This document shows, piece after piece, positions 7,347 through 53,799 of a stretch of DNA of 64,000 bases. The notes beneath the pieces are model-generated. The model saw nothing but the letters and a program-made list of their open reading frames with translations. It searched no databases and had not been told where the DNA came from. The stretch is from contig CAZOOJ010000001.1 in the NCBI GenBank assembly GCA_964581415.1, positions 36,096 to 100,095 on the forward strand, given 5' to 3'. A program made the translations under genes and the position numbers. Numbering within the stretch: position 1 is the stretch's first letter; each line of letters opens with the position of its first letter. The stretch is from Candidatus Woesearchaeota archaeon. Lineage in GTDB: Archaea; Nanobdellota; Nanobdellia; Pacearchaeales; GW2011-AR1.

Positions 7347-8081
7347 TTATTTAAACTTTTTTAAAACTATTTTATTTAATTCTTCAGGTCCTTTAACTAA
7401 AAAAGATTTGTCTGTAGATTTAAATAAAGGAAAATCATTTTTTGAATCCCCAAAAGAAAATGTCTTTATTTTTTTATTCTGTTTTTTAAACATTCTTATT
7501 AAAATTTTAGCAGCTTTTCCTTTGTCATTATCTCCTAAAAGATGGAAATAATTTCCTCCTTCAGTATAATTGAAACCTCTTCTTTTAATTTCTTTTACTA
7601 TTTTGTTTTTATCTTTTTTATTTTCTATTTTAAAAACCACATCGTATTCTCTTTTTTTTGCAAGTTTTGCTTCTTTTAAACTCAAACCTATCTGATTTGA
7701 AATTTCTTTAGCAGACATTTTATAAAAAGAAGTGACTTTAAATTTTTTATTGATATTTTTCATAATTTTAACTAATTTTTTATATGGAGTTCCTAATTCA
7801 ATTATAGAATAATTATCTCTTTTCTTTGATTTGAATTTAAAATCAAAATAATCTTTAGGAATAAAAATTGCTCCTCCATTTTCTGAAATAAAAGGTTCTT
7901 TATTTTTCATTTTTTTTCTATAGACTTCTATTTCTGCTCTGGTTTTGCTTGAGATTAATATTAAAGGAATTTTTTTATTTTTAAGAAGTTCTATTGCTTT
8001 TTTAGATTTTAAAAAGCTATAATTTTTATCAATGAGTGTTCCGTCTAAATCGCTGAATATCACCTCTTTAATTTTTTCCAT
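7347..8081 (-). CDS. HAD-IIB phosphatase, mannosyl/glucosyl-3-phosphoglycerate phosphatase-like (MpgP/YedP family)
   Basis: Motif I FSDLDGTLID and motif IV FGDSKNDFPLF. The size and spacing are typical of Cof/MpgP-type HAD-IIB enzymes. Confidence 0.55.
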   Translation of the reverse strand: MEKIKEVIFSDLDGTLIDKNYSFLKSKKAIELLKNKKIPLILISSKTRAEIEVYRKKMKNKEPFISENGGAIFIPKDYFDFKFKSKKRDNYSIIELGTPYKKLVKIMKNINKKFKVTSFYKMSAKEISNQIGLSLKEAKLAKKREYDVVFKIENKKDKNKIVKEIKRRGFNYTEGGNYFHLLGDNDKGKAAKILIRMFKKQNKKIKTFSFGDSKNDFPLFKSTDKSFLVKGPEELNKIVLKKFK

Positions 8082-8126
8082 ATTAAAACTTAGAAATCTT
8101 TATTTTAATAATTTTCTGAATTGAAA

Positions 8127-8366
8127 TTATTCTTTAGAAGATGCTTCTTCATTTTTTTTGCCTTCAAATTCACTGTAATGACATTTTCCGCAATAAGCTC
8201 TTCCTTGAGAAACATTTAGAAATACTCCTGGTCCGCATCTCGGACAGGTTCTAGCTCTTGTAATTTTATCACCTTCTATTTTATACTTAGAATATTTTTT
8301 TCCAGTAGGCTTGTTTTTATGAGGCTTTTTTCCTTTCTTTTTTGATTTAGCTTTTTTCTTTCCCAT
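8127..8366 (-). CDS. rps27ae: Ribosomal protein S27a (eS31)
   Basis: Lys-rich N-terminus plus the zinc-ribbon CPRCGPGVF…CGKC. Confidence 0.8.
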   Translation of the reverse strand: MGKKKAKSKKKGKKPHKNKPTGKKYSKYKIEGDKITRARTCPRCGPGVFLNVSQGRAYCGKCHYSEFEGKKNEEASSKE

Positions 8367-8368
8367 TT

Positions 8369-8824
8369 TTATTCTTTAGATTGCTCGCTCGCAGGCTCGC
8401 TCGATTTATCAGAATTTATTAATGAGGAATCTTCTTTAATTTTTTCTTTATCTGAAGATTCAGATTCATTAATAAGATTATTATTTCCTTCGGATTTTTC
8501 TTCTTGTTCTTTTTGAGGAGATTCTTGAACTTTTTCTTCTTCTAAAGCTTTCTTTTCTTCTTCAATTTCTTTTTTCTTCTTAATTTCTATCTTGTCCTTA
8601 TCTTCTTTTGAAGGATATATCTTTGCAATAACTGAAAAATCTTTTCTTCCAAATTTTCCTTTAATTGTCTTTATTTTTATACATTCTGGCTGAACTGAAA
8701 ATTTTTTGGATACTATATCTTTAATCTCTTTACGACTCGGAGTAATTTCTGCTTTAATTTCTCCTTTTATTTCCCTTCTTTTAAATAAAGGATTTTCTTT
8801 ATCTTCGATTATTTTAAATTCCAT
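8369..8824 (-). CDS. rps24e: Ribosomal protein S24e (eS24) with a long K/E/S-rich C-terminal extension
   Basis: MEFKIIEDKENPLFKRREIKGEI…TPSRKEIKD… matches the S24e N-terminal domain. About 70 aa of low-complexity tail follow. Confidence 0.75.
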   Translation of the reverse strand: MEFKIIEDKENPLFKRREIKGEIKAEITPSRKEIKDIVSKKFSVQPECIKIKTIKGKFGRKDFSVIAKIYPSKEDKDKIEIKKKKEIEEEKKALEEEKVQESPQKEQEEKSEGNNNLINESESSDKEKIKEDSSLINSDKSSEPASEQSKE

Positions 8825-18324: not shown

Positions 18325-21300
18325 ATGGTAAATAAAATCAGAAAAAGAGATGGTAGTGTTGTTCTATTCAATCAAGATAAAATTACAGAAGCTATTTGGA
18401 AAGCTGTAAAATTTGTTGGAGGAAAAGATAAAGAAAAATCAAAATATTTATCAGATTTAATTCTAAAAAAATTAGAAGAGAAACATGGAAATTTAGGAAT
18501 ACCTGAAGTAGAAGAAGTGCAGGATTTGGTTGAAAAAATCCTTATTGAAGAAGGACATGCAAAAGTTGCAAAATCTTATATTTTATACAGAAAAAGTCGT
18601 GAAGAATTAAGAAATGTAAAAGGACTTTTTGATACTATTGAAGCTGTTGAAGATTATATTGGATTAAATGATTGGATGGTTAAAGAAAATTCAAATATGG
18701 GTTTTTCTCTGCAAGGACTTAATAATTACATATCTACAAAAATAGTAAGTAATTACTGGATGAGAAGAATTTATCCTGAAGCTATAAGAAATGCGCATGA
18801 AACAGGAAATTTACATATTCATGATTTGGGAATTTTAGGAGTCTATTGTGTAGGATGGGATTTGAAAGATTTGTTGTTAGTAGGATTTAAAGGAGTTAAA
18901 GGAAAAGTTGCATCAAAACCTCCAAAACATCTTAGAACAGCTTTAGGACAAATTATAAATTTCTTTTATACTCTGCAAGGAGAATCAGCAGGAGCACAAG
19001 CATTTTCTAATTTTGATACTCTATTAGCACCTTTCATAAGATATGATGCTCTGGATTATAAAGAAATAAAACAGTGTATGCAAGAATTTTTATTTAATCT
19101 TGCTGTTCCTACAAGAGTTGGATTCCAATGTATATCTGAAGATACAGAAATTTTAACTCCTAAGGGTTGGAAAGGATACTCGAAATTAGAAAAAGGAGAT
19201 ATAATTAAAACTTTTAATCTTAATAAAGGAAAAATAGAAAATCAAAAAATTAAAAGATTATTTAAGAAGCATTACACAGGAGAAATGTATAACTTAAAAA
19301 ATAGGATTCAGGATCAGTTAATTTCACCAAAACATAGAGTAGTTAGAAGGAGATTTAATTCAAAAGAATATGTTTTAGAAGAGATAGAGAGTATTAAGAA
19401 AAGAAAGGCTCCCCTCATAATTCCTATAACTGGAGGAAATACAAACAAAAAACAAAATATATCTAATGAGATGATAAAACTTCTTGCATGGATAATTGCA
19501 GAAGGAACTTCAGAACATTCAGGACAAAAACACAGGCAGTCTAGAAGAATTACAATTTATCAATCTAAATTAAAAAAACCAAAAGAGTACAAAGAAATAA
19601 TTAATCTCCTTAAAAAGATTAGATTAGATTATTCTGAAAGAGATTCATCACCTTCTTTAGGAAATTCTATTAAAATGATTAAATTAAATGCAAAGTCCTC
19701 AAAAAAAATTCATGACTTATTTGAAGATGATGAAAGAATTGACTTTATTCCTGAAAAATTATTGAACATGAATAAAGAGCAATCAAAATTATTTTTAGAA
19801 ATTTTCATAAAAGCAGATGGATTTGAAAAGTGTAAGATTGCAACAACAAATAAAAGTATTTTAGATGGATTACAGCAAATAGCTGTAAATGCAGAATATG
19901 GTTTCACTGTATTAGAAAAAGAACCAACAATTGGAAAAAAGATTATTTATGTTCTAAGATTAATAAAACATAAAGAAACCTATATCCAAAAAATAGAAAA
20001 GATAAATTATTCTGGAACAATTTGGTGTCCAAACACTGACAATGAAACAGTAATTGCTCGTCGTAATGGAAAAGTTTTTATCACAGGCAATACTCCATTT
20101 ACGAATATAACTATGGACTTAAAAGTTCCTTCTTATATGAAAGATGAAGCTATAATCATAGGAGGAATTCCACAAAAAGAGACCTATAAAGAATTTCAGC
20201 GTGAAATGAATCTGTTAAATAAAGCATTTGCTGAGATTATGATAGAAGGAGATTCTGAAGGAAGAGTCTTCACTTTTCCTATTCCTACTTATAATATCAC
20301 AAAAGATTTTGATTGGGAAAATCCTGAATATGATATGCTTTGGGAAATGACAGCTAAATATGGAATTCCTTATTTTTCCAATTTTATAAATTCAGATATG
20401 AATCCAGAAGATGCAAGAAGCATGTGTTGCAGACTCAGATTAGATCAGACAGAATTAAGAAAAAGAGGTGGAGGTTTATTTGGAGCCAATCCTTTAACTG
20501 GAAGTATAGGAGTAGTAACAATTAATATACCAAGATTAGGTTTTACTTCAAGAGATGAAGAAGATTTTTTTAACAAATTAGAAGATTTAATGGAACTTGC
20601 AAAAGAAAGTTTAGAAATAAAAAGAAAAAATCTTGAAAAACTTACAGAAAGAGGACTTTATCCTTATTCTAAATTCTATTTAAGAAATATTAATAAGAGA
20701 TTTGGAGAGTATTGGAAAAATCATTTTGCTACTATAGGTTTATTAGGAATGAATGAAGGTATAATGAATTTTATGCCTGGAGAAGATATAGGAACTGAAA
20801 GAGGAAAAGAATTTTCAGTAAAAGTCTTAGATTTTATGAGAAAAAAACTTGAAGAATATCAAAATGAAACAGGAAATATTTATAATTTAGAAGCAACTCC
20901 TGGAGAAGGAACCACATACAGATTTGCAAGAATTGACAAAAAGAGATTTGGAAGGATAATTACTGCAAATGAAAGAGCAGTAAGAAATGAAAAAGCTCCT
21001 CCTTATTACACAAATTCAACACAACTTCCTGTTAATTATACAACAGATTTATTTGAAGCTCTGGAATTACAGGATCCTTTACAAACAAGATATACTGGAG
21101 GAACAGTTTTTCATTCATTTGTCGGAGAAAGACTAAATAAGGAAGGAATAAAAAAATTAGTTAGAAAAATCTCTGAAAATTTCAGTCTGCCTTATTTTAC
21201 AATATCGCCTGTTTTTTCAGTTTGTCCGATTCATGGTTATATTGCAGGAGAGCATTTTTATTGCCCTAAATGCGATGCTGAGCATGGAATTGTAAGAAAT

Positions 21301-21357
21301 TCAGAAGGAAAAATTATCAGAAGAGAAAATGAAAAGAACATTCAAATAAAAAATTAA
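18325..21357 (+). CDS. nrdD: Anaerobic ribonucleoside-triphosphate reductase NrdD (class III RNR), interrupted in frame by an intein. This ORF lacks the glycyl-radical C-terminal motif.
   Basis: N-terminal ATP-cone and NrdD core blocks. A C-terminal Cys/His cluster CPIHGY…CPKCD is present. No RxxGY glycyl-radical motif occurs before the stop. Confidence 0.8.
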   Translation: MVNKIRKRDGSVVLFNQDKITEAIWKAVKFVGGKDKEKSKYLSDLILKKLEEKHGNLGIPEVEEVQDLVEKILIEEGHAKVAKSYILYRKSREELRNVKGLFDTIEAVEDYIGLNDWMVKENSNMGFSLQGLNNYISTKIVSNYWMRRIYPEAIRNAHETGNLHIHDLGILGVYCVGWDLKDLLLVGFKGVKGKVASKPPKHLRTALGQIINFFYTLQGESAGAQAFSNFDTLLAPFIRYDALDYKEIKQCMQEFLFNLAVPTRVGFQCISEDTEILTPKGWKGYSKLEKGDIIKTFNLNKGKIENQKIKRLFKKHYTGEMYNLKNRIQDQLISPKHRVVRRRFNSKEYVLEEIESIKKRKAPLIIPITGGNTNKKQNISNEMIKLLAWIIAEGTSEHSGQKHRQSRRITIYQSKLKKPKEYKEIINLLKKIRLDYSERDSSPSLGNSIKMIKLNAKSSKKIHDLFEDDERIDFIPEKLLNMNKEQSKLFLEIFIKADGFEKCKIATTNKSILDGLQQIAVNAEYGFTVLEKEPTIGKKIIYVLRLIKHKETYIQKIEKINYSGTIWCPNTDNETVIARRNGKVFITGNTPFTNITMDLKVPSYMKDEAIIIGGIPQKETYKEFQREMNLLNKAFAEIMIEGDSEGRVFTFPIPTYNITKDFDWENPEYDMLWEMTAKYGIPYFSNFINSDMNPEDARSMCCRLRLDQTELRKRGGGLFGANPLTGSIGVVTINIPRLGFTSRDEEDFFNKLEDLMELAKESLEIKRKNLEKLTERGLYPYSKFYLRNINKRFGEYWKNHFATIGLLGMNEGIMNFMPGEDIGTERGKEFSVKVLDFMRKKLEEYQNETGNIYNLEATPGEGTTYRFARIDKKRFGRIITANERAVRNEKAPPYYTNSTQLPVNYTTDLFEALELQDPLQTRYTGGTVFHSFVGERLNKEGIKKLVRKISENFSLPYFTISPVFSVCPIHGYIAGEHFYCPKCDAEHGIVRNSEGKIIRRENEKNIQIKN
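19129..20091 (+). mobile_element. Intein (321 aa) with a LAGLIDADG homing-endonuclease domain inside nrdD
   Basis: Begins with Cys in …VGFQ|CISEDTEILTP (Hint block A) and ends …KVFITGN|T (terminal Asn, +1 Thr). It contains LAGLIDADG-type motifs LLAWIIAEGTSE and LFLEIFIKADGFE. Confidence 0.75.
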
Positions 21358-21385: not shown

Positions 21386-21586
21386 ATGGAAAAAGAAAAT
21401 CAAGAAATTAAAGAACAAGGAAATGAAAAAGCCGGAATTGAAAATACAAAAGAAAATAAAGAAGAATTTAATGGAAGTGAATGTGAAGTTTATTCCAGAG
21501 TTGTAGGATATCTAAGACCTATCAGCCAATGGAATGAAGGAAAGGTATCTGAATTCCGAGATAGAAAAAATTTCGAAGTTGCTTAA
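21386..21586 (+). CDS. Separate small ORF encoding the class III RNR glycyl-radical domain (NrdD C-terminal fragment)
   Basis: …CEVYSRVVGYLRPISQWNEGKVSEFRDRKNF aligns with the NrdD C-terminus (E. coli …RRVCGYLGSP…NAGKQEEVKRRV). It is preceded by a K/E/N-rich linker. The reading frame differs from nrdD and the two are separated by stop codons. Confidence 0.6.
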   Translation: MEKENQEIKEQGNEKAGIENTKENKEEFNGSECEVYSRVVGYLRPISQWNEGKVSEFRDRKNFEVA

Positions 21587-22761: not shown

Positions 22762-22836
22762 GGCTCCGTAGCTCAGCCTGGATAGAGCACTAGGCTTTTA
22801 ACCTAGGTGTCGAGGGTTCAAATCCCTTCGGAGCCA
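22762..22836 (+). tRNA. tRNA-Lys (anticodon UUU)
   Basis: Acceptor GGCTCCG/CGGAGCC, D-arm GCTCAGCCTGGATAGAGC, anticodon stem CTAGG/CCTAG with loop CTTTTAA, and T-loop GGTTCAAATCC. Confidence 0.85.
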
Positions 22837-22995
22837 TTTTTTGAATTTTTAATTATAGAAGAATATTCTTCTATTAAGTTGCTAAATGTATTCTATATGA
22901 AAAGAAGTTTGGATTTAAGCTAAAATAAATTTTTAGAAGAAAGCAACCGGCTTTGTTTAATAAGTAAGAAAAACTGACGACTTTTTAAACAGAGA

Positions 22996-23481
22996 TTAAT
23001 TTTCTACTTGCTCAAAAGAAGCCATTTTAGTAAGAAATTCTCTTAATTCCCCATATAATTCTAAATGTTGTTTGTTTAACTCTATCCAGTGAGGTATTGA
23101 AGATTCCAATCTGGTAATCCCCTTCAAATCTTTAGGATATATATTGTGAGCAAAAATATCTCTTATTTTATAAAATTTTATCAATTTATTTTTAAAATCT
23201 TTATTTGTTTTTAACTCTTCTTTATTATGTTGGTTAACCTCGTTAATAATTTCTAATAATAAATTTGCTCTTGAACTTGCACCAAAATTTACTAAAAAGA
23301 ATTCATTAAATCTGAATATTTTACTTAAATTAAGGGGCTTCCAATTATCTTTTTCTTCTCCAAATTTTAAATCTAATCCAAAAGATTTTCTTATAATTTT
23401 ATTAGAAATATTGTCTATATCAATAGTCCTCATAATAACCTCATGCAATAATTCTTTGGGTAATTCAAATGGATTTTCCAT
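22996..23481 (-). CDS. Hypothetical protein (161 aa) directly downstream of, and overlapping, the transposase gene
   Basis: ORF only; possible passenger gene of the IS. Confidence 0.3.
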   Translation of the reverse strand: MENPFELPKELLHEVIMRTIDIDNISNKIIRKSFGLDLKFGEEKDNWKPLNLSKIFRFNEFFLVNFGASSRANLLLEIINEVNQHNKEELKTNKDFKNKLIKFYKIRDIFAHNIYPKDLKGITRLESSIPHWIELNKQHLELYGELREFLTKMASFEQVEN

Positions 23482-24506
23482 TATATTCTAATAGGTTCCT
23501 CTAATTTAAAGTTTGCTTTAATTCCAAGTTCACAGATTTCCTGAATCACAACACAAATGTTGTGACATAAAACTTTAACCAATAATTCATTAAATTGTGC
23601 GGTTTCTTTTTTACTTTTAATATGACTTCCGAATTTAGTTTTAATCATATGAAAACAAGTTTCAGAATTGCTCCTTTTATGATAGTGTGATAAAAATTCA
23701 ATTTGATTAAACATAAAGAAATGATACATCTTCTTCCAAATCTGAGAACCAGCCTTTTTTCCTGTTACGTTTTTCTTAAATGGAATATAGGGTGTTGCTC
23801 CAAAATCATTTATTACCTCGAAATTCTCCCTACTCAAATACGCTTTATCTCCACTTACTTCAGATATTTTGAAATTTTCTGCTGTTTTTTTAACAAGTCC
23901 TTTTAATTGTGGGCTATCTGCTTTATTCCCTTCAGTAATATTAACTCCTGTTATAATGTTGGTTTTAATACCGGAAAGAAGATGAGCTTTTAACCAGATT
24001 TTATATCTCCTTTCTTTGCCCCATTTATAATCAAACCATCTTGCAAATCGTGAAGTAGAAAATCCAGAAGAATCTATTGTGAAATCAGCTTCAACTTCTT
24101 TAAGAGGTAAGGAACTAATTATAATGAGTTGTTCTAAAATTGTCTTAACCTCTGGTTTGTTCATAAAGTTTGATAATGAAGAATAACAAGGAACCTTGTA
24201 GACTAACCCAAATTCTTTTGCTATTTTCATATCAGACATAAAACGCCTTAAAGAAAATCCTGTATAGATTTTCATAACAGAACCAAAGAGCATGTCATTA
24301 AAAGGCAAAGTTGGTCTACCAAATTTATAAAGAGGTTGTTCAATATTATCACATAAATCCTTAAGCAACTTCATAAAGAGTAATTTCTCGTTTGTTTGTG
24401 CTTTGTTGTATGCTGTCCATTCTTGACTATATTTTTTATTCTCCGTTAACTTTTTATATAACCATTCCTTTTCTTTTATGGATTCAAATTGTGCTTCGCG
24501 GTGCAT
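23481..24506 (-). CDS. DDE transposase (IS4/IS5-superfamily, DDE_Tnp_1-like)
   Basis: Spaced acidic residues in TIDSSGF… / …SGDKAYLS… / …SNSETCFHMIKTKFG, the D-D-E plus K/R pattern of IS4/IS5-type transposases. It sits next to the tRNA-Lys 3' end. Confidence 0.55.
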   Translation of the reverse strand: MHREAQFESIKEKEWLYKKLTENKKYSQEWTAYNKAQTNEKLLFMKLLKDLCDNIEQPLYKFGRPTLPFNDMLFGSVMKIYTGFSLRRFMSDMKIAKEFGLVYKVPCYSSLSNFMNKPEVKTILEQLIIISSLPLKEVEADFTIDSSGFSTSRFARWFDYKWGKERRYKIWLKAHLLSGIKTNIITGVNITEGNKADSPQLKGLVKKTAENFKISEVSGDKAYLSRENFEVINDFGATPYIPFKKNVTGKKAGSQIWKKMYHFFMFNQIEFLSHYHKRSNSETCFHMIKTKFGSHIKSKKETAQFNELLVKVLCHNICVVIQEICELGIKANFKLEEPIRI

Positions 24507-24516
24507 TTTGTGTCCT

Positions 24517-24581
24517 GGAGCCTTCGGGCTCCTTTAATTTATTATGATAGCCAACACTCAGCGTCCCATAACCGCTGAGTG
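24517..24581. other. Pair of perfect GC-rich hairpins in an AT-rich intergenic region
   Basis: GGAGCC-TTCG-GGCTCC (24517-24532) and CACTCAGCG-tcccataac-CGCTGAGTG (24555-24581). Both contain CCTTCGG/CCCATAA strings that are also found in the local tRNAs. Confidence 0.5.
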
Positions 24582-24609
24582 CCTTTCTCTTCGAAGAGTA
24601 TTATTCTTG

Positions 24610-25257
24610 TCATTTTTTCTGTCTTTTCTGAAGTGCTTGTTTTTGAGCAGAAAGTATTATTTCTGCTTGCTCTATTGAATCAATGTCTTTAGGGACTCTC
24701 ATATAGAGTCCGCCAGTTTTGAATTCAATAATGTTTGAAACGCCCACATTATTTTCTTTTTCCATTTCAAAACCTCCGTCGTCAAAAGATAAACCTTCTG
24801 ACTCGGAAGCATATTTCATTGCGTCATTAAATATTTTTTGTATCCTAAAAACTTCCTTATCTAACTTAGCTCTGTCTACTCCTGTTATGTCTATTAGTGC
24901 TAAAAGCATTCCCTCTTTGTCGGGAGATTTACTCCCCACCTTTTTTCTTATTTCTGATATTAAAGGAACTTTAGATAATATTTCGCCATAAGCCTTTTTC
25001 TCTTCATTTCCCAAGGGTTTTGCGATTCTGGTTCCCAAGTTAGTTAACTGGATTCCTTTAATTCCGCTTTTGATTAAACCTAATTGACGCAAGGTAACAA
25101 GTTTCTTAATGAATCCTCCACTATTTGTTGTTGAATGTCCCAACTTAGTAGCCAAACTCTCGTCGGAGCTGATGCTATTTTTATAAATTGTTTTCACAAT
25201 CTCTACGCATTGACTAAATGTCAATTCAGGTACATAGTAATTTCCTATTTTTGCCAT
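24610..25257 (-). CDS. Hypothetical protein (215 aa), possible N-terminal winged-helix
   Basis: ORF only. The N-terminal ~90 aa have a wHTH-like pattern (…GFIKKLVTLRQLGLIKSG…). Weak. Confidence 0.3.
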   Translation of the reverse strand: MAKIGNYYVPELTFSQCVEIVKTIYKNSISSDESLATKLGHSTTNSGGFIKKLVTLRQLGLIKSGIKGIQLTNLGTRIAKPLGNEEKKAYGEILSKVPLISEIRKKVGSKSPDKEGMLLALIDITGVDRAKLDKEVFRIQKIFNDAMKYASESEGLSFDDGGFEMEKENNVGVSNIIEFKTGGLYMRVPKDIDSIEQAEIILSAQKQALQKRQKK

Positions 25258-25508
25258 TTTACTTTATATTAGTAAGTTTACTCTAAATAGAGTAATATTA
25301 CCTTTAAATACTTTGTGGTGATAAAATTCAACAATATAATTGCTTTTCTAAAAGAAAAATAATCCAAATTTAAGAAAGGTTAAAATTTATAAAGATGTAA
25401 TTTTTGTAATGAATATGAAAAGAGGGTGGACAAAAGGTTTAAAAAATATAATTCTTGGTAATTCTACACAAAATAAAAATATAAATAGTTTAATTTTCTT
25501 TTTATAAA

Positions 25509-25814
25509 ATGAGTCAACAAGTTAATAAAGAATTTAAGAATAATGTTTTTAATAATATAGAGCAAACAGGAGAAAATTTTAAACAACAATTTGAAAAATT
25601 AATGAGTATTGCTCAAAAAAGAATAGATTCTCAAGTTAATTGTGCTAAATTTGAGGCAGCATATGGATTATCTATTTCTAAAAAAGAAAGGCAAAAAACT
25701 ATGAAAGATGTTAAAGAAATTAGAAAAGAATTATGGAAAGAGGCATTAAATAAAGCTAAAGGGAAATCTACCGATGCTTACGAAATTTATTGCGAGATTT
25801 GTTCATTTGATTAG
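25509..25814 (+). CDS. Hypothetical protein (101 aa)
   Basis: ORF only; convergent with, and slightly overlapping, the 25768-26394 gene. Confidence 0.25.
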   Translation: MSQQVNKEFKNNVFNNIEQTGENFKQQFEKLMSIAQKRIDSQVNCAKFEAAYGLSISKKERQKTMKDVKEIRKELWKEALNKAKGKSTDAYEIYCEICSFD

Positions 25815-26394
25815 TCCATTCTCTTATTTTAGAATTTGTTAAATTTTCTGCTTCAGGAATAATTTTTATTCTTACTTTTAATTTTAAGAGTTTCGTAGCT
25901 TTAGCAATATCTTTGTCTTCAGTAAAATAAACATTTATATTTTTCTGTCCTATAAGATTAGATAATATCTTACAATCATTTGGAAATGTATCGAATTTTT
26001 TAATATACATTTTTTTCTTAACTATACCCACCCATTTATTTCCAAGATTATTAAATTGTTTTTTATGTTTTATTTTATTTATTGAAAATTCTCTCAATAT
26101 CTCTTTTAGTTCATTTGTTGCTTTATCATGTGTATACCCTTTTTTCTTGATAAGTGTTTGGCGAGCTTCACCCAAGGCAATTTCTGTTGTATATATTTTT
26201 AAAACATTAAGGAAAACTCTATCTCTTATCTCTTGCTTAAATTCATCAGACCAAACTATATCAACTAATACATTTGCATCAAATCCGATTATATCTTCAT
26301 CATTGACAAAATCATTTCTTTCAGATGAGTTATACCTTTCTATTTTTTCTCCTTTTTTTCTCAATACAGATAATTTTCTTTCTTCTATTTCCAT
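25768..26394 (-). CDS. Hypothetical protein with a PIN-like nuclease domain (208 aa)
   Basis: IIGFDANVLVDIV (first Asp), …YTTEIALGEA (Glu), …NDCKIL, …FTEDKD acidic positions at PIN-like spacing, plus a ~35-aa N-terminal extension. Confidence 0.35.
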   Translation of the reverse strand: MEIEERKLSVLRKKGEKIERYNSSERNDFVNDEDIIGFDANVLVDIVWSDEFKQEIRDRVFLNVLKIYTTEIALGEARQTLIKKKGYTHDKATNELKEILREFSINKIKHKKQFNNLGNKWVGIVKKKMYIKKFDTFPNDCKILSNLIGQKNINVYFTEDKDIAKATKLLKLKVRIKIIPEAENLTNSKIREWTNQMNKSRNKFRKHR

Positions 26395-26444
26395 TTTGTC
26401 AAACCCCTAATTCTCTAAGGGAAATTCAATCAAGAAGTAAACCC

Positions 26445-26511
26445 CTTGACGCCTTCTCCTTCGGACACCCTAATTTAAGGCGTCCAAGAGTGGAATAAAT
26501 CCACTCAAGGA
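26445..26511. other. Compact GC-rich multi-hairpin element (Y-shaped: outer CCTT/AAGG, inner GACGCC…GGCGTC and AGTGGA-ataaa-TCCACT)
   Basis: Perfect inverted repeats read directly from the sequence. The element lies between the divergent PIN-like gene and the RM gene and contains CTCCTTCGGACACC, which resembles the tRNA-Lys 3' end TCCCTTCGGAGCCA. Confidence 0.45.
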
Positions 26512-26604
26512 GGTTAATTTTAGAAGGCTTAAGCATTTTTAAATTTTATTATAGATTTTCTATGAAATACAAATAATTAAAAATTAAAAATTCTTATTTG
26601 AATT

Positions 26605-29277
26605 ATGGATAAAGAAAGTGCAAAATTAGAAGTAGAAGAAATAGTTAGAAAATTTCTCTCTATCCCAAAAAACGAAAGGGATTCTATGCCTGAAGAAAAA
26701 ATAAAGAGTTGGTTTATTGAACCACTATTTGAGGCATTAGGTTGGAATAGGTATGATATGTCTAAAGAAGAAAGGATTTTGAAAGGTAGAGCTGATTATG
26801 TTGTTAGAATAGGAAATCAAGATAAATTAGTAATAGAAGCAAAGAAAACAAATGTTGGATTAAATGAAGAAGAGGGAAGACAAGCTGTTTCTTATGCTCA
26901 CCATAAGAATATCAAGTTTGCAGTTTTAACCAACTTCGCAAGAATAAGGGTTTTTCATGCATTATCAAATATCAAAAATATTGATAAAAATTTATTGAAA
27001 GATAAGACCGACTATTTAAGATTTAATTGTGAGGATTTTGTTAAGGATTTTGATAGATTATGGTTGTTATCAAGAGAGAGTTTTGAGCAAGGAGAAATAA
27101 ACAAACTCCTTGAGAATGTTGATAAAAAACTAATAAAACCTATCGATGAATCAATATTAACAGACTTACTTCAGTATAGAGAATGGCTATCTAAAGATTT
27201 GAAAAGCAAAAGAAGTTATTTAGAAGATTCTCAAATTGATGAGGTTGTTCAGATTTTGATTGATAGATTAATCTTTATGCGTTCTGTTGAGGATAGGGGC
27301 TTAGAAGCAAAAGATTTCTTATTAAAGATTATTAATGATGTTGAAAAAGGTTTTACAGATATGAATCTTTGGGCAGTGTTAAAAGCACAATTCCAAAGAT
27401 TTGATAAAACTTACAACTCAAAATTATTTCAAGATGGAATATTAGAAAAAGAGGGGTTTTTTGATAATAGGGTTCTTGTCAAAGTTATCAAAGGATTATA
27501 TTATGGAACTCAAGACCATCAAGAGAGATATATGTTTGATGAGATTCCTGTTGATTTATTGGGAAGTATCTATGAACAATATTTAGGGATTGTTTTAAGA
27601 GGAACAGAAAAGAGAGTTAAATTAGATTTGTTAAGTAAAAAAAGAAAAAAGATGGGAATATATTATACTCCCTCTTATATTGTGGATTATATTGTAAAAA
27701 ATACAATAGGAGAATATATTAAAAATAAATCTATTGATGAAATTTTAGATATTAAGGTTATAGACCCTGCGTGTGGTTCTGGTTCTTTTTTGATTAGAGC
27801 ATTTCAAGAATTAATAAACATAATTGAAGAGAGATTAAAAAATGGTGAGAAATCTAAAAAATATCAAAATACTTTCAAAGAATGGAAAGGGAAGTTAAGT
27901 TTAGGAGAGAAAACAACAATTTTAACTAATTGTATTTATGGTGTTGATTTGGATGAAAAAGCAGTTGAGTTAGCACAACTTAATTTATTGTTAAAGATAT
28001 TAGAAGAAGAAACAAGAGAAACAAGAAAAAGAGTTTTGCCTACTATGAAGGATAATATCAAGAATGGAAATAGTTTAATCTCTGATTCTCGTTTTGATAA
28101 GGCGTTTAATTGGAATGCTCAATTTCCCAAGATAAAAGAAGGGGGTTTTGATATTGTTATTGGAAATCCACCATATGTTGACTACTCTAAAATCAAAGGA
28201 ACAGATTATTTTAATAAAATTTATGAAAGTTCTAAAGTTAATAATAATGTTGTAAAATATAATTTATTCCAGTTATTCATTGAGAAATCTATAAGACTCT
28301 TAAAGGAAGGTGGAATGTTTGGGTTTATCAATCCAAATACATATTTATCAACTCAAAATGCATTTGCATTGAGGAAATTAATATTAGAAGAAACATCTTT
28401 AAAGAAGATAATTGATGTTTCACATTTAAGAGTTTTCAAAGACGCTTCGACTTATCCTGTAATAACTATTTTCAAAAATGGGAAAGAGAAAAAAAATAAG
28501 TTGGGTGTTGCTGTTATTGATGACGAAAAAGATTTAGTAGAAGAATTAAAATTAAATGAAATAAACCAAGAAGAGTTTGAAAAAGATAAAAAACTTAATT
28601 TTATGATTAGTTCAAACGAAGAAAATAAAGAGATTATGAGAAAGTTAGATTCTTGCGATAAACTAAAAGATTATCAAGAAACTTTTGTTTGGGGTTCTTC
28701 TATTACAGGATTTGCAAAACATAAAGCAAAAGAAAAAGAGAAAGATAAAAAATATTCTCCTGTAATTCAGACAAGAGATATAAAAAAATATTGCATAGAA
28801 TGGAAGGAAGAATATATTGAAAATAAAATTTATTCAGATAAATTAAAAGAATTATTTAAGAAGAAAAAACTTGTTATAGCAAGAGTTACAAAGGGCGTTC
28901 AAGCGACTATTGATAATAAAGGTTATTATGTTGGAAAATCTTCTATTTTAATTCCAAAAGATAAAGATTTATTTGAAATTCTTTTAGCCATCATCAATTC
29001 TAAACTTATTAACTATTATTATAAAATGAAATTTGAAACAACACATATGGCTGGGGGTTACATAAGATTTGATATTCCTTATTTAAAACTATTACCTATT
29101 AAATTGCCTGATGAAAAACAGGCAGAGAAGATAAAAGAATTAGTTAAGAGAATGATGGAATTATGCGAAAAGAAAGACGAGCAACAAATTAAAAATGTTG
29201 ATTATGAAATTAATGAAGAAATTTACAAATTATATGAAATTACAGGTAAGGAAAAGGAAGTTATAGAAAAATCTTAA
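26605..29277 (+). CDS. Type IIG/IIL restriction-modification enzyme (fused PD-(D/E)xK endonuclease, gamma-class N6-adenine methyltransferase and target-recognition domain; MmeI/Eco57I-like)
   Basis: N-terminal nuclease motif …GRADYVVRIGNQDKLVIEAKK (D…ExK). SAM motif I VIDPACGSGSFLI and catalytic motif IV IGNPPYVDY. A long C-terminal TRD-sized region follows. Total 890 aa. Confidence 0.75.
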   Translation: MDKESAKLEVEEIVRKFLSIPKNERDSMPEEKIKSWFIEPLFEALGWNRYDMSKEERILKGRADYVVRIGNQDKLVIEAKKTNVGLNEEEGRQAVSYAHHKNIKFAVLTNFARIRVFHALSNIKNIDKNLLKDKTDYLRFNCEDFVKDFDRLWLLSRESFEQGEINKLLENVDKKLIKPIDESILTDLLQYREWLSKDLKSKRSYLEDSQIDEVVQILIDRLIFMRSVEDRGLEAKDFLLKIINDVEKGFTDMNLWAVLKAQFQRFDKTYNSKLFQDGILEKEGFFDNRVLVKVIKGLYYGTQDHQERYMFDEIPVDLLGSIYEQYLGIVLRGTEKRVKLDLLSKKRKKMGIYYTPSYIVDYIVKNTIGEYIKNKSIDEILDIKVIDPACGSGSFLIRAFQELINIIEERLKNGEKSKKYQNTFKEWKGKLSLGEKTTILTNCIYGVDLDEKAVELAQLNLLLKILEEETRETRKRVLPTMKDNIKNGNSLISDSRFDKAFNWNAQFPKIKEGGFDIVIGNPPYVDYSKIKGTDYFNKIYESSKVNNNVVKYNLFQLFIEKSIRLLKEGGMFGFINPNTYLSTQNAFALRKLILEETSLKKIIDVSHLRVFKDASTYPVITIFKNGKEKKNKLGVAVIDDEKDLVEELKLNEINQEEFEKDKKLNFMISSNEENKEIMRKLDSCDKLKDYQETFVWGSSITGFAKHKAKEKEKDKKYSPVIQTRDIKKYCIEWKEEYIENKIYSDKLKELFKKKKLVIARVTKGVQATIDNKGYYVGKSSILIPKDKDLFEILLAIINSKLINYYYKMKFETTHMAGGYIRFDIPYLKLLPIKLPDEKQAEKIKELVKRMMELCEKKDEQQIKNVDYEINEEIYKLYEITGKEKEVIEKS

Positions 29278-29427
29278 TCTTTAATATCTCATAGACTTTT
29301 TAAACAGAAGCCCCTATTTAAACAAAGCCAAAGCAACCCAAAAATTTATAAACCGAGTTTTATTATCTTTTATTATTATAAAGTTGTTAAAGTTAATGTA
29401 AATTATGTAACTTTATACCCCTCCAGA

Positions 29428-29634
29428 ATGCATATTTTTCAATCAAAACATGTAAGATTAAACAAAAAAGAATCTGAAAAAATTCTTAGAGAATTAAATA
29501 TATCAAAAGTACAATTGCCAAAGATTTCTTTAAAAGATTCAGCTTTACCTGAAGGATGTGAAAGAGGAGACATAATTCAGATAGAAAGAAAGGATGATGG
29601 TAAAATATTTCCTTATTTTAGAGTAGTTGTGTAA
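29428..29634 (+). CDS. rpoH: DNA-directed RNA polymerase subunit H (Rpb5 homolog)
   Basis: …HVRLNKKESEKILRELNISKVQLPKISLKDSALPEG…GDIIQIERK…YFRVVV matches the RpoH consensus. It lies immediately upstream of rpoB. Confidence 0.8.
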   Translation: MHIFQSKHVRLNKKESEKILRELNISKVQLPKISLKDSALPEGCERGDIIQIERKDDGKIFPYFRVVV

Positions 29635-52002: not shown

Positions 52003-52084
52003 GCCGCTGTCGCATAGTGGTTATTGCACGGCACTGGAGCTGCCGGCCCTTCGGGGCGCCCAGGTTCGATTCCTGGCAGCGGCG
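52003..52084 (+). tRNA. tRNA-Ser (anticodon GGA), long variable arm
   Basis: Acceptor GCCGCTG/CAGCGGC, anticodon stem CGGCA/TGCCG with loop CTGGAGC, variable arm GCCC-TTCG-GGGC, and T-arm CCAGG-TTCGATT-CCTGG. Confidence 0.8.
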
Positions 52085-52103
52085 TTTATGCAGTTGAAAA
52101 TCA

Positions 52104-52185
52104 GCCCTCATCGCATAATGGTATTGCAACGGACTCGAGCTCCGTGTCCTTTTTGGACGTCCCTGTTCGATTCAGGGTGAGGGCG
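52104..52185 (+). tRNA. tRNA-Ser (anticodon CGA), long variable arm
   Basis: Acceptor GCCCTCA/TGAGGGC, anticodon stem ACGGA/TCCGT with loop CTCGAGC, variable arm GTCC-TTTTT-GGAC, and T-arm CCCTG-TTCGATT-CAGGG. Confidence 0.8.
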
Positions 52186-52228
52186 TATTCGGAAAGTTTT
52201 ATAAGTAAAAACAGATAATCAGTAATAT

Positions 52229-52304
52229 AGCGGGATGGAGCAGTCTGGAGTGCTCGTCGGGCCCATAACCCGGAGGTCGCGTGGTTCAAATCCCGCTCCC
52301 GCTA
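52229..52304 (+). tRNA. Initiator tRNA-Met (anticodon CAU; A1:U72 archaeal initiator type)
   Basis: AGCGGGA…TCCCGCT acceptor, and anticodon stem-loop TCGGG-CCCATAA-CCCGG, closely matching archaeal tRNAi. The T-stem appears to carry one extra (bulged) T (GCG[T]GG/CCCGC). Confidence 0.75.
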
Positions 52305-52313
52305 TTCTTTAAA

Positions 52314-52730
52314 ATGCAGACATTTTTACCATATCCAAATATTGAAAAATCATTAAAAGTTTTAGATAACAAAAGGCTTGGAAAGCAGAGAGTTGAAGCT
52401 TATCAGATATTAAATATTCTTCTCAATAGAACTAAAACAAAAGGATGGAAAAATCATCCTGCTGTAAAAATGTGGAAAGGGCATTCTAATGCTTTAAAAT
52501 TATACTTTAATAAATCTCTAGAAGAATGGATTAAAAGAGGATATAAAAATAATATGAAATTAGAAAAAATTAGAGGAAAAATTAAAATGCCTAGATGGTT
52601 CGGAAATAAAAAATTTCATGCATCTCATAGAAGCAATTTATTAAGAAAAGATAAAAAATATTATTCTAAATTTAAATGGAAAGAAAAGAATAATCTGCCT
52701 TATGTTTGGAATATAAAAGAAATTATTTAA
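52314..52730 (+). CDS. Hypothetical protein, weakly Pyr_excise-like (possible pyrimidine-dimer DNA glycosylase family)
   Basis: MQTFLPYPNIEKSLKVLDNKRLGKQRVEAYQIL resembles the …YLD.K.L…REA…L N-terminal block of the family. The start is set at the ATG after the tRNA; the ORF-track start lies inside tRNAi. Confidence 0.3.
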   Translation: MQTFLPYPNIEKSLKVLDNKRLGKQRVEAYQILNILLNRTKTKGWKNHPAVKMWKGHSNALKLYFNKSLEEWIKRGYKNNMKLEKIRGKIKMPRWFGNKKFHASHRSNLLRKDKKYYSKFKWKEKNNLPYVWNIKEII

Positions 52731-52783
52731 AACAATAAATCTTTATATTTTGAATATATAAAATATAAAAAAGGAGGTAAAAA

Positions 52784-53008
52784 ATGAAAAAAGATGTGTT
52801 TGAAAAGTTGTCTGCTTTAATTATTGCTGCTTTTGGATTAGTTGCTGCTTTGGCTTGGAATGGAGCAATTCAATCAATTTTTAAACAGGTGTTTGGAGAT
52901 TCTGAAACTATCGTAGCAATGTTATTTTATGCAACAATTGTTACTATAATAGCAGTAATAGTGGCTATTTGGATTGGAAAATTAGAAGCAAAAGCAAATA
53001 AGAAATAA
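52784..53008 (+). CDS. Small membrane protein (74 aa)
   Basis: Two hydrophobic helices; good SD-like AGGAGG upstream (52773-52778). Confidence 0.35.
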   Translation: MKKDVFEKLSALIIAAFGLVAALAWNGAIQSIFKQVFGDSETIVAMLFYATIVTIIAVIVAIWIGKLEAKANKK

Positions 53009-53440
53009 AAATTAATATCTGTATAGAAATTGCATTAGATTAATGATTATAATTGCAAAACCAATTACTATTCTTATTGTTTGTGTAGATTGTCTTTTCA
53101 ATGAAGTAGAAGGATGCTCAAAAATCCTCACAAATCCTTCAATAACAAAAAAATTGCAACCAGAAATGCAAGTATATCTCTAGCTATTGAATCAAAAGAG
53201 CTACATCCTTCATCAACAGAAGTTTGGTCAATTGTTTGAGTATAAAAAGTCACAGAAATAACTATTGCACATAAAAAATGTAAAAAGAAGTGTCTGGTTA
53301 ATGTTTTTCATATTTATTATTTAAAAATAAAATTTATAAATTTTTTAGATTTCAAAATAAAAACTCTTAAATCTTCTTAATTAATTTTTATTAATAATAA
53401 TCCAAAAGTTTAAATTACAAAAAAAATATATAAAATTGAT

Positions 53441-53521
53441 GCCCTGATCGCATAATGGTATTGCACCAGATTGCTAATCTGGATCCTTCGGGATGCGCAG
53501 GTTCGATTCCTGCTCAGGGCG
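53441..53521 (+). tRNA. tRNA-Ser (anticodon GCU), long variable arm
   Basis: Acceptor GCCCTGA/TCAGGGC, anticodon stem CCAGA/TCTGG with loop TTGCTAA, variable arm ATCC-TTCG-GGAT, and T-arm GCAGG-TTCGATT-CCTGC. Confidence 0.8.
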
Positions 53522-53799
53522 TTTTCTTGGAAAAAAATAAATAGTTTAACTCCCTAAGAGAAATAGAGCTAAAATGTACAATATCCCAACTAATTAATAA
53601 CTATGCTTCTATTTTCTTTTTCTTCTATTTCTTCTCCACAAGAATTATAAAATTTACTCTCCTCACTTAACTTAAAATTACATTTATTGCATTTCATTTT
53701 TCTTAAATTTTGTAGAATTAAGACCAATTAACTTAACAACATATCTTAAAGATTAAATTTATAAATCTCAAGAATATTATTTTATAAAAGAAGTGAAAA

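Follow-up and report, generated by a model that had tools for sequence, protein, structure and literature searches.

A probable IS903-type transposon carrying restriction and nuclease genes between tRNA-Lys and rpoH of a DPANN archaeon

A 64,000-nucleotide stretch of contig CAZOOJ010000001.1 from a Candidatus Woesearchaeota archaeon, called the window here, contains a block of six genes between tRNA-Lys and the RNA polymerase gene rpoH, interpreted below as a probable cargo transposon. The host is a DPANN archaeon of about 27% G+C, and the nearest relatives by RpoB carry the labels Pacearchaeota, Woesearchaeota or Nanoarchaeota. An initial annotation, made from the sequence alone, had listed tRNA-Lys, an open reading frame (ORF) of 161 amino acids (aa), a DDE transposase, three further ORFs and an 890-aa fused enzyme, followed by rpoH-rpoB-rpoA, and all of these lie where it placed them. 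The genes of the locus, in window coordinates, are as follows.

22762-22836, + strand: tRNA-Lys(UUU), found by ARAGORN and matching the Rfam tRNA model at 69.8 bits; the left neighbour, outside the element.
22996-23481, - strand: ORF161, terminal gene of the element family, with an ATGA overlap at the stop codon of the transposase.
23481-24506, - strand: intact DDE transposase, 341 aa (Pfam DDE_Tnp_1, 7e-19; NCBIfam IS5_2, 140.4 bits against a cutoff of 140).
24610-25257, - strand: ORF215, 215 aa, of an uncharacterised family, with an N-terminal winged-helix-like region.
25509-25814, + strand: ORF101, a small helical protein of 101 aa, convergent with the PIN gene and overlapping its 3' end by 47 nucleotides (nt).
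25768-26394, - strand: ORF208, a PIN-domain (VapC-like) nuclease of 208 aa with an N-terminal extension of about 35 aa.
26605-29277, + strand: fused restriction-modification (RM) enzyme, 890 aa, recognised by its Pfam domains and by PADLOC REase_MTase_IIG (2e-119).
29428-29634: rpoH, with rpoB and rpoA downstream.

The proteins of the window and its tRNA-Lys were mapped onto 80 species-representative loci around rpoB, in which the order NrdD-NrdG-Trx-tRNA-Lys-rpoH-rpoB recurs. The spacer from tRNA-Lys to rpoH measures 85-500 bp in about 35 related Pacearchaeota/Woesearchaeota genomes, and even 57 bp in a Hydrothermarchaeales genome; the gap of 6591 bp in the window is the largest among the loci compared. 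Where relatives have longer spacers, these hold unrelated genes (an adenylate kinase, an RNR-like protein, an M1 peptidase), and tblastn with the six island proteins gave no match in the 80 loci. Because the spacer is short or filled with unrelated genes in relatives, and because the island proteins are absent from the 80 loci, the block is accessory. The initial annotation had said so and had proposed comparing gene order with relatives, a comparison that supports it: tRNA-Lys lies close upstream of rpoH in about 35 of them, and the island's gene order appears in none of the 80 loci. It had also proposed looking for deviant composition, and here the deviation proved mild, with G+C at third codon positions (GC3) raised in the transposase (0.243) and in ORF215 (0.292, the window maximum) relative to the window (0.160 +/- 0.037) while the remaining island genes fall within the window's range. 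The codon-usage distance of the RM gene is somewhat above that of other long genes.

The inserted DNA spans 22949-29329 (6381 bp), beginning 112 nt past tRNA-Lys and ending 98 nt ahead of the rpoH start codon, which replaces the limits of 22837-29300 given in the initial annotation; likewise, the 161-aa ORF, said there to follow the tRNA immediately, is separated from it by 159 nt. Generic repeat searches over 22-30 kb and 22.8-24.7 kb missed these ends, as AT-rich chance repeats scored above them, and the ends were found by direct comparison of the two junction regions.

22940-22948: target-site duplication, left copy, AAAGCAACC; the identical 9-mer stands outside both inverted repeats.
22949-22964, + strand: terminal inverted repeat at the ORF161 end, GGCTTTGTTTAATAAG.
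22979-22993: subterminal 15-nt motif GACTTTTTAAACAGA, first copy, a direct repeat of a segment near the other end.
29294-29308: subterminal motif GACTTTTTAAACAGA, second copy, which includes a run of five T 17 nt past the RM stop codon.
29317-29329, - strand: terminal inverted repeat at the RM end, reading TTTAAACAAAGCC on the + strand.
29330-29338: target-site duplication, right copy, AAAGCAACC.

The left end (22949-22960) reads GGCTTTGTTTAA and matches the other end at 12 of 12 nt, or at 14 of 16 when the longer GGCTTTGTTTAATAAG is paired with GGCTTTGTTTAAATAG at the RM end. Exactly two perfect copies of GGCTTTGTTTAA occur in the 64 kb; they are inverted, lie at the edges of the island, and each has AAAGCAACC on its outer side. 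A window-wide scan for the arrangement of a 9-mer, a 12-mer, the reverse complement of that 12-mer and the same 9-mer returned this instance alone, and 300 Markov-simulated windows produced three such architectures, all made of A and T only and none with comparable G+C. The subterminal repeat of GACTTTTTAAACAGA also exceeds chance, since none of 200 shuffles gave a repeat of 15 nt, and the motif is kept after ORF161 homologues on three other contigs (L150, L100 and L103). Within the element there is no internal copy of the inverted repeat that would bound a smaller insertion sequence (IS). A 12-mer resembling the inverted repeat at 25746-25757 was set aside, since it has two mismatches, lies inside the ORF101 coding sequence and is within chance expectation, and a similar match in contig L124 was also judged to be chance.

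Removing the element and one copy of the duplication leaves a tRNA-Lys-to-rpoH spacer of 201 nt, within the range seen in relatives. The site before insertion would read ...TTTTTAGAAG-AAAGCAACC-CAAAAATTTATAAACC, and the duplicated 9-mer lies in native sequence resembling the 'AGAAAGCAAAAG' of five element-free relatives (L009, L011, L013, L016 and L017). Separately, four contigs from two independent assemblies (L093, L002, L004 and L087) end at or beside the element boundaries, at 22948 and at 29230-29330, with a clustering of ends at 22948 and 29326-29330; breaks at both boundaries would be expected if those populations were polymorphic for the insertion.

These ends bear on the proposal of the initial annotation that the block is a tRNA-targeted integrative and defence island inserted at the 3' end of tRNA-Lys. 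In such a case a tyrosine or serine recombinase, which may since have been lost, would have brought a circular element into the tRNA end. A block of accessory, defence-type genes beside a tRNA gene does look like such an island, and RM-plus-integrase units inserted in tRNA genes are known (PMC2853133). However, none of the six ORFs carries an integrase domain in Pfam, NCBIfam, PHROGs and PADLOC scans, and neither the 28-nt nor the 16-nt 3' end of the tRNA has a second copy in the 64 kb when three mismatches are allowed. The junction falls 112 nt past the tRNA rather than in it, and the ends are inverted repeats with a 9-bp duplication. A second copy of the element, described below, lacks any tRNA in the 115 nt beyond its left end, and the position of the element is fixed relative to the rpoH promoter block and not to the tRNA. 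We regard integration at the tRNA as highly improbable. What stands of that proposal is the defence-type content, namely the type IIG RM enzyme and the PIN nuclease.

The transposase and the ends point instead to the IS903 group of the IS5 family. The transposase is 27% identical to that of IS903B (E 5e-16), with D145, D220 and E282 and the signature Y-x2-R-x3-E-x6-K aligned, and its best plasmid-borne matches are IS903B copies bordered by the IS903B inverted repeat. The element's own inverted repeat matches IS903B GGCTTTGTTGAATAAATC at 15 of 18 positions, and its termini begin with GGCTTTGTT-AATAA. Published IS903B has GGCTTTGTTGAATAAATCG as its left and GGCTTTGTTGAATAAATCAG as its right inverted repeat and a 9-bp direct repeat (PMC10569121), and a duplication of 9 bp is also listed for IS903 (PMC2577343 Table 1). 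The element thus has the transposase type and signature, the inverted repeats beginning GGC and the 9-bp duplication that define the group. It departs from the compact IS format, in which the transposase is the sole gene in about 1-1.5 kb, since it is 6381 bp long and has five further ORFs; it is an IS-derived cargo transposon and no plain IS. Neither is it a compound transposon like Tn903, having a single transposase gene, no second IS copy and no internal inverted repeat. In the usage of ISfinder and TnCentral, a transporter IS (tIS) or unit transposon has one transposase and one pair of inverted repeats around genes with no role in transposition, with the target duplication around the whole unit. 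The element has this form, one transposase and one inverted-repeat pair enclosing passengers on both sides of the transposase gene, and only 52 nt separate the RM stop codon from the right inverted repeat. A blastn search of the IS region against plasmids gave no match.

Altogether, we consider it very probable that a single DDE transposon with cargo, belonging to the IS903 group of the IS5 family and classed as a transporter IS or unit transposon, makes up 22949-29329, and that it probably targets promoters. Promoter targeting is the least certain step of this explanation.

One further feature lies next to the transposase gene.

24517-24579: a pair of GC-rich hairpins a short way upstream of the transposase start, one of them GGAGCC-TTCG-GGCTCC (24517-24532) and the other CTCAGCG-N9-CGCTGAG (24557-24579), read from the sequence and from a terminator-like scan.

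These hairpins may insulate or regulate expression of the transposase. Elsewhere, two other contigs with an RM gene of 79% identity each have, some 1.7 kb downstream of that gene (L109 11413-12024 and L110 9422-10081), an ORF of 203-219 aa with 28% identity (E 3e-15) to transposase residues 46-211, which may be a relic of a related IS.

Several JGI and Logan assemblies contain this locus with 99.99-100% identity, as exact-protein look-ups showed. Contigs from two other metagenomes (L005/L098 and L099) carry the same element with one single-nucleotide difference and an internal deletion of 1557 bp (23780-25336), in a different setting. In this L005-type copy a perfect 9-bp duplication, TTCCAAACC, lies outside both inverted repeats, which are those of the window. 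Its left flank is unrelated to that of the window, with no tRNA within 115 nt, and its right flank, the promoter block, is identical to the window's at 46 of 52 positions, the remaining differences clustering at the right junction. The interiors of the two copies are about 100% identical and their duplications differ at 5 of 9 positions, and in both copies 9 + 6 nt separate the element from the TTTATAAA box. Because each duplication is internally perfect and the two differ at 5 of 9 positions while the interior is about 100% identical, the copies cannot go back to a single insertion event, and the unit as a whole, with its cargo, has been inserted on at least two occasions. A simpler account of L005, as a deletion variant with a rearranged left flank, was dropped since that copy has its own duplication, TTCCAAACC.

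The second copy also helps to weigh a piecemeal history, in which the spacer is a fluid region that gathered unrelated insertions (a small IS, an RM gene, toxin modules) and the outer repeats define no single mobile unit. The spacer does hold differing unrelated genes in relatives, each cargo module is found elsewhere alone, and GC3 is deviant only in the transposase and ORF215. Yet the 9-bp duplication lies outside the outermost inverted repeats, which means that all 6381 bp moved in the last event; in a second background, with another duplication, these inverted repeats enclose the complete cargo set at 100% identity; and no internal inverted repeat marks out a smaller IS. A mosaic history probably explains how the cargo was assembled and not how the unit arrived here, and as an account of the arrival we think it improbable.

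The element sits 15 nt upstream of the TATA-like box of rpoH, with the right copy of the duplication between it and the following feature.

29339-29392, + strand: native promoter block of the rpoH operon, CAAAAATTTATAAACC (a box resembling the B-recognition element and TATA box, BRE/TATA) plus CTTTTATTATTATAAAGTTGTTAAAG, intact after the insertion.

This block is conserved across an alignment of ten relatives, some of which have the element and some not, and is probably the promoter and leader of the RNA polymerase operon. Its two boxes, AAAAGGTTTTTAAAYC ... CTTTTATTATT..AAGTTGTTAAA, are strikingly conserved in Pacearchaeota whose RpoH is only 50-70% identical (L009, L011, L013, L016, L017 and L029). 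Boxes like CAAAAATTTATAAACC also occur upstream of other genes in the window, so that this box probably represents the organism's BRE/TATA consensus. A scan for bacterial promoters was uninformative (38 matches, 37.7 expected).

Truncated remnants of the family were found beside promoters on further contigs, at the rpoH site of three related species (L150, L006 and L012) and before a proteasome promoter of two others (L103 and L100).

L150: tRNA-Lys, about 45 nt of the transposase 3' end, an ORF161 homologue (86% nucleotide identity) and the inverted repeat of the ORF161 side, with the orientation reversed.
L006, the closest species representative: an inverted-repeat-like GACTTTTTAAACAAAGCC at the rpoH position, with other genes instead of the cargo.
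L012: an inverted-repeat-like GGACTTTGAAACAAATCC at the rpoH position, with other genes instead of the cargo.
L103 and L100: an ORF161 homologue and a 50-nt terminal segment, ahead of a proteasome gene.

The inverted-repeat motif stands at an equal distance from the promoter block in the L005-type copy, L150, L006 and L012; in L150 it abuts ACCCCCACC and then the rpoH promoter block, as far away as in the window. In L103 the inverted repeat is followed by 9 nt and then by the identical box CAAAAATTTATAAACC. Because the second copy, the rpoH relics and the proteasome relics lie at equivalent positions, the family probably selects targets at promoter boxes. IS903 itself prefers a loose motif, WTTYA-N9-TRAAW (PMC2577343), which the site of the element fits at its A-rich right half-site only (CAAAA beside the duplication, compared with TRAAW in IS903). 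In a genome of 27% G+C, the IS903 preference by itself would not explain repeated hits on the same nucleotide.

The promoter-targeting part of this explanation, and only that part, has a rival: an IS903-like element without target specificity may have inserted once upstream of rpoH in the ancestor of a Pacearchaeota subclade, and then been inherited, inverted, truncated or refreshed by recombination. In L150, L006 and L012 the junction from inverted repeat to promoter does fall at the same nucleotide distance, as it would in orthologous DNA; the adjoining 9-mers of these contigs look as if they had diverged from one sequence, ending ...CACC or ...AACC; and the target motif of IS903 is loose. 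Against a single event, the perfect duplications of the window and the L005-type copy differ at 5 of 9 positions and so require separate insertions, and the L005-type interior is about 100% identical where the flank is 88%. In addition, L103 and L100 carry the same element end at the proteasome gene, followed by 9 nt and then the promoter box, and both orientations are found. We treat one ancient insertion as a tentative possibility, with rather less than an even chance.

A fuller account, on which our judgement is evenly balanced, is that of an IS903-related element which selects sites upstream of the BRE/TATA boxes of highly expressed operons (rpoH-rpoB-rpoA, proteasome), at a distance of the 9-bp duplication plus about 6 nt, and, with such sites as a safe harbour, ferries a multi-gene defence cassette between ultra-small DPANN archaea, with the ORF161 family kept after the transposase has decayed. 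Reproducible landing just upstream of promoters has parallels in IS5, which inserts upstream of E. coli promoters (glpFK, flhDC, bgl), and in Ty3 and Tf1, which target promoters in yeasts; the mechanisms in those cases, DNA structure and tethering to transcription factors, may be unrelated to that of the element.

Several observations weigh against a promoter-targeting cargo transposon of the IS903 group. The transposase scores right at the NCBIfam IS5_2 cutoff and is only 27% identical to that of IS903, and 6.4 kb with five passenger genes is far beyond the roughly 1.05 kb and one ORF usual for the group. The element is single-copy in the window, and its exact transposase was seen in one context only. 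No empty-site allele of the same species was recovered, a metagenome scan with RpoH finding relatives of at most 65% identity among the matches listed. The L005-type copy is known only from contigs of 1-5 kb, and the relics at the rpoH site may partly stem from one old insertion, which makes the count of independent promoter hits uncertain. Finally, parts of the cargo have homologues outside this element: RM genes of about 80% identity occur in quite different contexts (L108-L110), and the ORF208/ORF101 pair has homologues in L146-L148.

The mechanism would run as follows. If it works as IS903 does, the 341-aa transposase would bind the two GGCTTTGTTTAA termini and move the whole 6381-bp unit, the target would be cut with a 9-bp stagger, and repair of the stagger would leave the AAAGCAACC duplication. 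The termini, the duplication and the second insertion are themselves demonstrated at the level of sequence. Targets would probably be picked at a fixed distance from BRE/TATA-type promoter boxes, with the promoter block as the probable determinant. The cargo, a putative type IIG RM enzyme, a PIN/VapC nuclease with its 101-aa partner, a winged-helix-like protein and an R-x4-H protein, would presumably act as a defence or addiction cassette, stabilising the element and benefiting the host.

The largest cargo gene encodes what is predicted to be an intact single-chain type IIG RM enzyme, with a PD-(D/E)XK nuclease, a gamma-class N6-adenine methyltransferase and a TaqI_C-type specificity domain. 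Five Pfam domains score above cutoff (HSDR_N_2 37.7, Eco57I 140, N6_Mtase 87, TaqI_C 55.8 and MmeI_Mtase 58.4 bits), and the motifs D64...E78-x-K80, DPACGSG and NPPY are readable. More than 4900 homologues were found. The initial annotation had called the enzyme MmeI/Eco57I-like, and this is right as to the Eco57I and MmeI_Mtase domains and as to the layout shared with the MmeI/Eco57I-type IIG (IIL) enzymes, in which nuclease, methyltransferase and C-terminal specificity domain form a chain of about 900 aa. The likeness to MmeI goes no further: MmeI_N scores 23.8 bits, below its cutoff of 27, MmeI_Mtase alone passes, the helical spacer, the target recognition domain (MmeI_TRD) and MmeI_C were not detected, and the specificity domain is of the TaqI_C type. 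A relation to PglX of the BREX system was rejected, the best match, BREX_1_MTaseX, reaching 125 bits against a cutoff of 500, with no BREX genes nearby.

Two homologues of this enzyme have contexts of their own. In another Woesearchaeota metagenome-assembled genome (L108 6718-13699), secE is separated from spt5(nusG)-L11 by an RM gene of 80% identity, several small ORFs and a transposase of the IS240/IS6 type, a second instance of an RM gene and an IS lodged at the border of an operon that is universally conserved. A 215-aa ORF beside that RM gene turned out to be unrelated to ORF215. The closest non-identical homologue (P0047, 90% identity) is on a 3.8-kb contig labelled as a Minisyncoccales bacterium of the candidate phyla radiation (CPR), which reflects either a binning error or a recent exchange between DPANN archaea and CPR bacteria.

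The initial annotation had called one of the three small ORFs PIN-like. Such a protein is present, and it is ORF208; the PIN_8 match of ORF101 is below threshold. In ORF208 the acidic residues D39, E76, D140 and D160 are conserved, giving the four expected of the PIN fold of VapBC toxins. Foldseek matches VapC20 and VapC2 (E 3e-5, probability 1.00, template-modelling score 0.72), and some homologues carry PF01850. The operon layout of VapBC is absent, as ORF208 has no ORF upstream of it and its partner, ORF101, is convergent and overlaps at the 3' end. In the unrelated context of L146-L148, a 52%-identical ORF101 homologue is again convergent to a 63%-identical PIN homologue; the convergent pairing of ORF101 with ORF208 is conserved. 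The ORF215 family comprises 297 cluster representatives at E<=1e-3, and its profile weakly matches the winged helix-turn-helix domain of Csa3 (E 0.03). No match turned up on viral contigs scanned with the RM enzyme, ORF215, ORF208 and the two ends of the element.

Among 45 homologues of ORF161, which are 57-89% identical to it, no Pfam domain occurs, and R107, H112 and N113 are invariant, forming an R-x4-H-N motif. Its AlphaFold2 model (pLDDT, the predicted local distance difference test, 80) is all-alpha with five helices. No Pfam match appears even at E<=10, and fold and profile searches, HEPN included, were not significant; hypothetically, the protein could be a HEPN-like RNase. ORF161 is translationally coupled to the transposase, whose stop codon it overlaps. 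Conservation of its homologues stays high (57-89% identity) even in places that have lost the transposase, which suggests that selection acts on the ORF161 gene itself. An L006 protein, ORF193, was considered as a divergent homologue and rejected (BLASTP E 0.066, hhalign probability 0.3%). In L105-L107 an ORF161 homologue of 62% identity (around 8001-8471) overlaps a PD-(D/E)XK gene at its stop codon. The cluster in which it lies also includes two nucleotidyltransferase/HEPN-like pairs and a type I RM system, a defence-island context for the ORF161 family.

The genes around the element have features of their own. The window's tRNA-Lys(UUU) is without an intron, and in many relatives (L006 8874-8999, L007 8894-9011, L150 4552-4706 and others) the same tRNA is interrupted past position 39-43 by one of about 50-100 nt that escaped ARAGORN. 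An Rfam scan found the tRNA as its sole match. NrdD (18325-21357) contains an insertion of about 320 aa, at about residues 270-588, from CISEDTEIL to ...VFITGN/T, which cuts the NRDD domain into two stretches. It has a weak Intein_splicing match (E 0.004), relatives L006, L011 and L012 have contiguous, insertion-free NrdD matches, and the insertion is therefore probably an intein. A separate ORF of 66 aa at 21386-21586, past a stop codon, encodes the C-terminal (glycyl-radical) part of NrdD, and the 'NrdDc' matches of relatives are likewise separate. Further along, at 52003-53522, tRNA-Ser(GGA), tRNA-Ser(CGA) and tRNA-Met form a cluster, with tRNA-Ser(GCT) 1.1 kb beyond.

Compared with known systems, the element shares with bacterial IS903/IS903B, the component of Tn903, the DDE and Y-R-E-K residues, the 9-bp duplication, 15 of 18 inverted-repeat positions and the A-rich half-site. 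It differs in its archaeal (DPANN) host, its single copy, its 6.4 kb with five passengers where IS903 has 1.05 kb and one ORF, its 341-aa transposase where that of IS903 has 307 aa or more, and its apparently fixed position next to promoter boxes in place of a loose palindromic preference. Bacterial transposon-like RM units have been described in which RM genes lie within imperfect terminal inverted repeats with an 8-9-bp duplication, one of them combining a degenerate transposase with a type IIG gene (Furuta, Abe & Kobayashi 2010, PMC2853133); here, in contrast, the transposase is intact and assignable to an IS group, further nuclease modules are present, a second insertion is documented and the host is a DPANN archaeon. 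Archaeal IS-like transposons are reported to have typically one or two genes (PMC6563490). The element is an IS903-group derivative in a DPANN archaeon; its transposase is intact, its cargo comprises several nuclease-type genes, its re-insertion is documented, and it apparently prefers sites adjacent to promoters.

Accessory genes beside a tRNA therefore need not be an island of the integrase type, and a plausible mis-annotation is corrected here. Pacearchaeota cannot be grown alone, and to our knowledge almost nothing is known about how their defence genes move; this locus offers a precisely bounded and apparently recently active transposon in the group, on which a restriction enzyme, a PIN nuclease and an R-x4-H protein travel as one unit. 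IS903-type termini and the 9-bp duplication are recognisable across the divide between bacteria and archaea. If the fixed position relative to promoter boxes does reflect targeting, the family would be a tractable case of promoter-directed DDE transposition in archaea and a possible start for a site-directed insertion tool.

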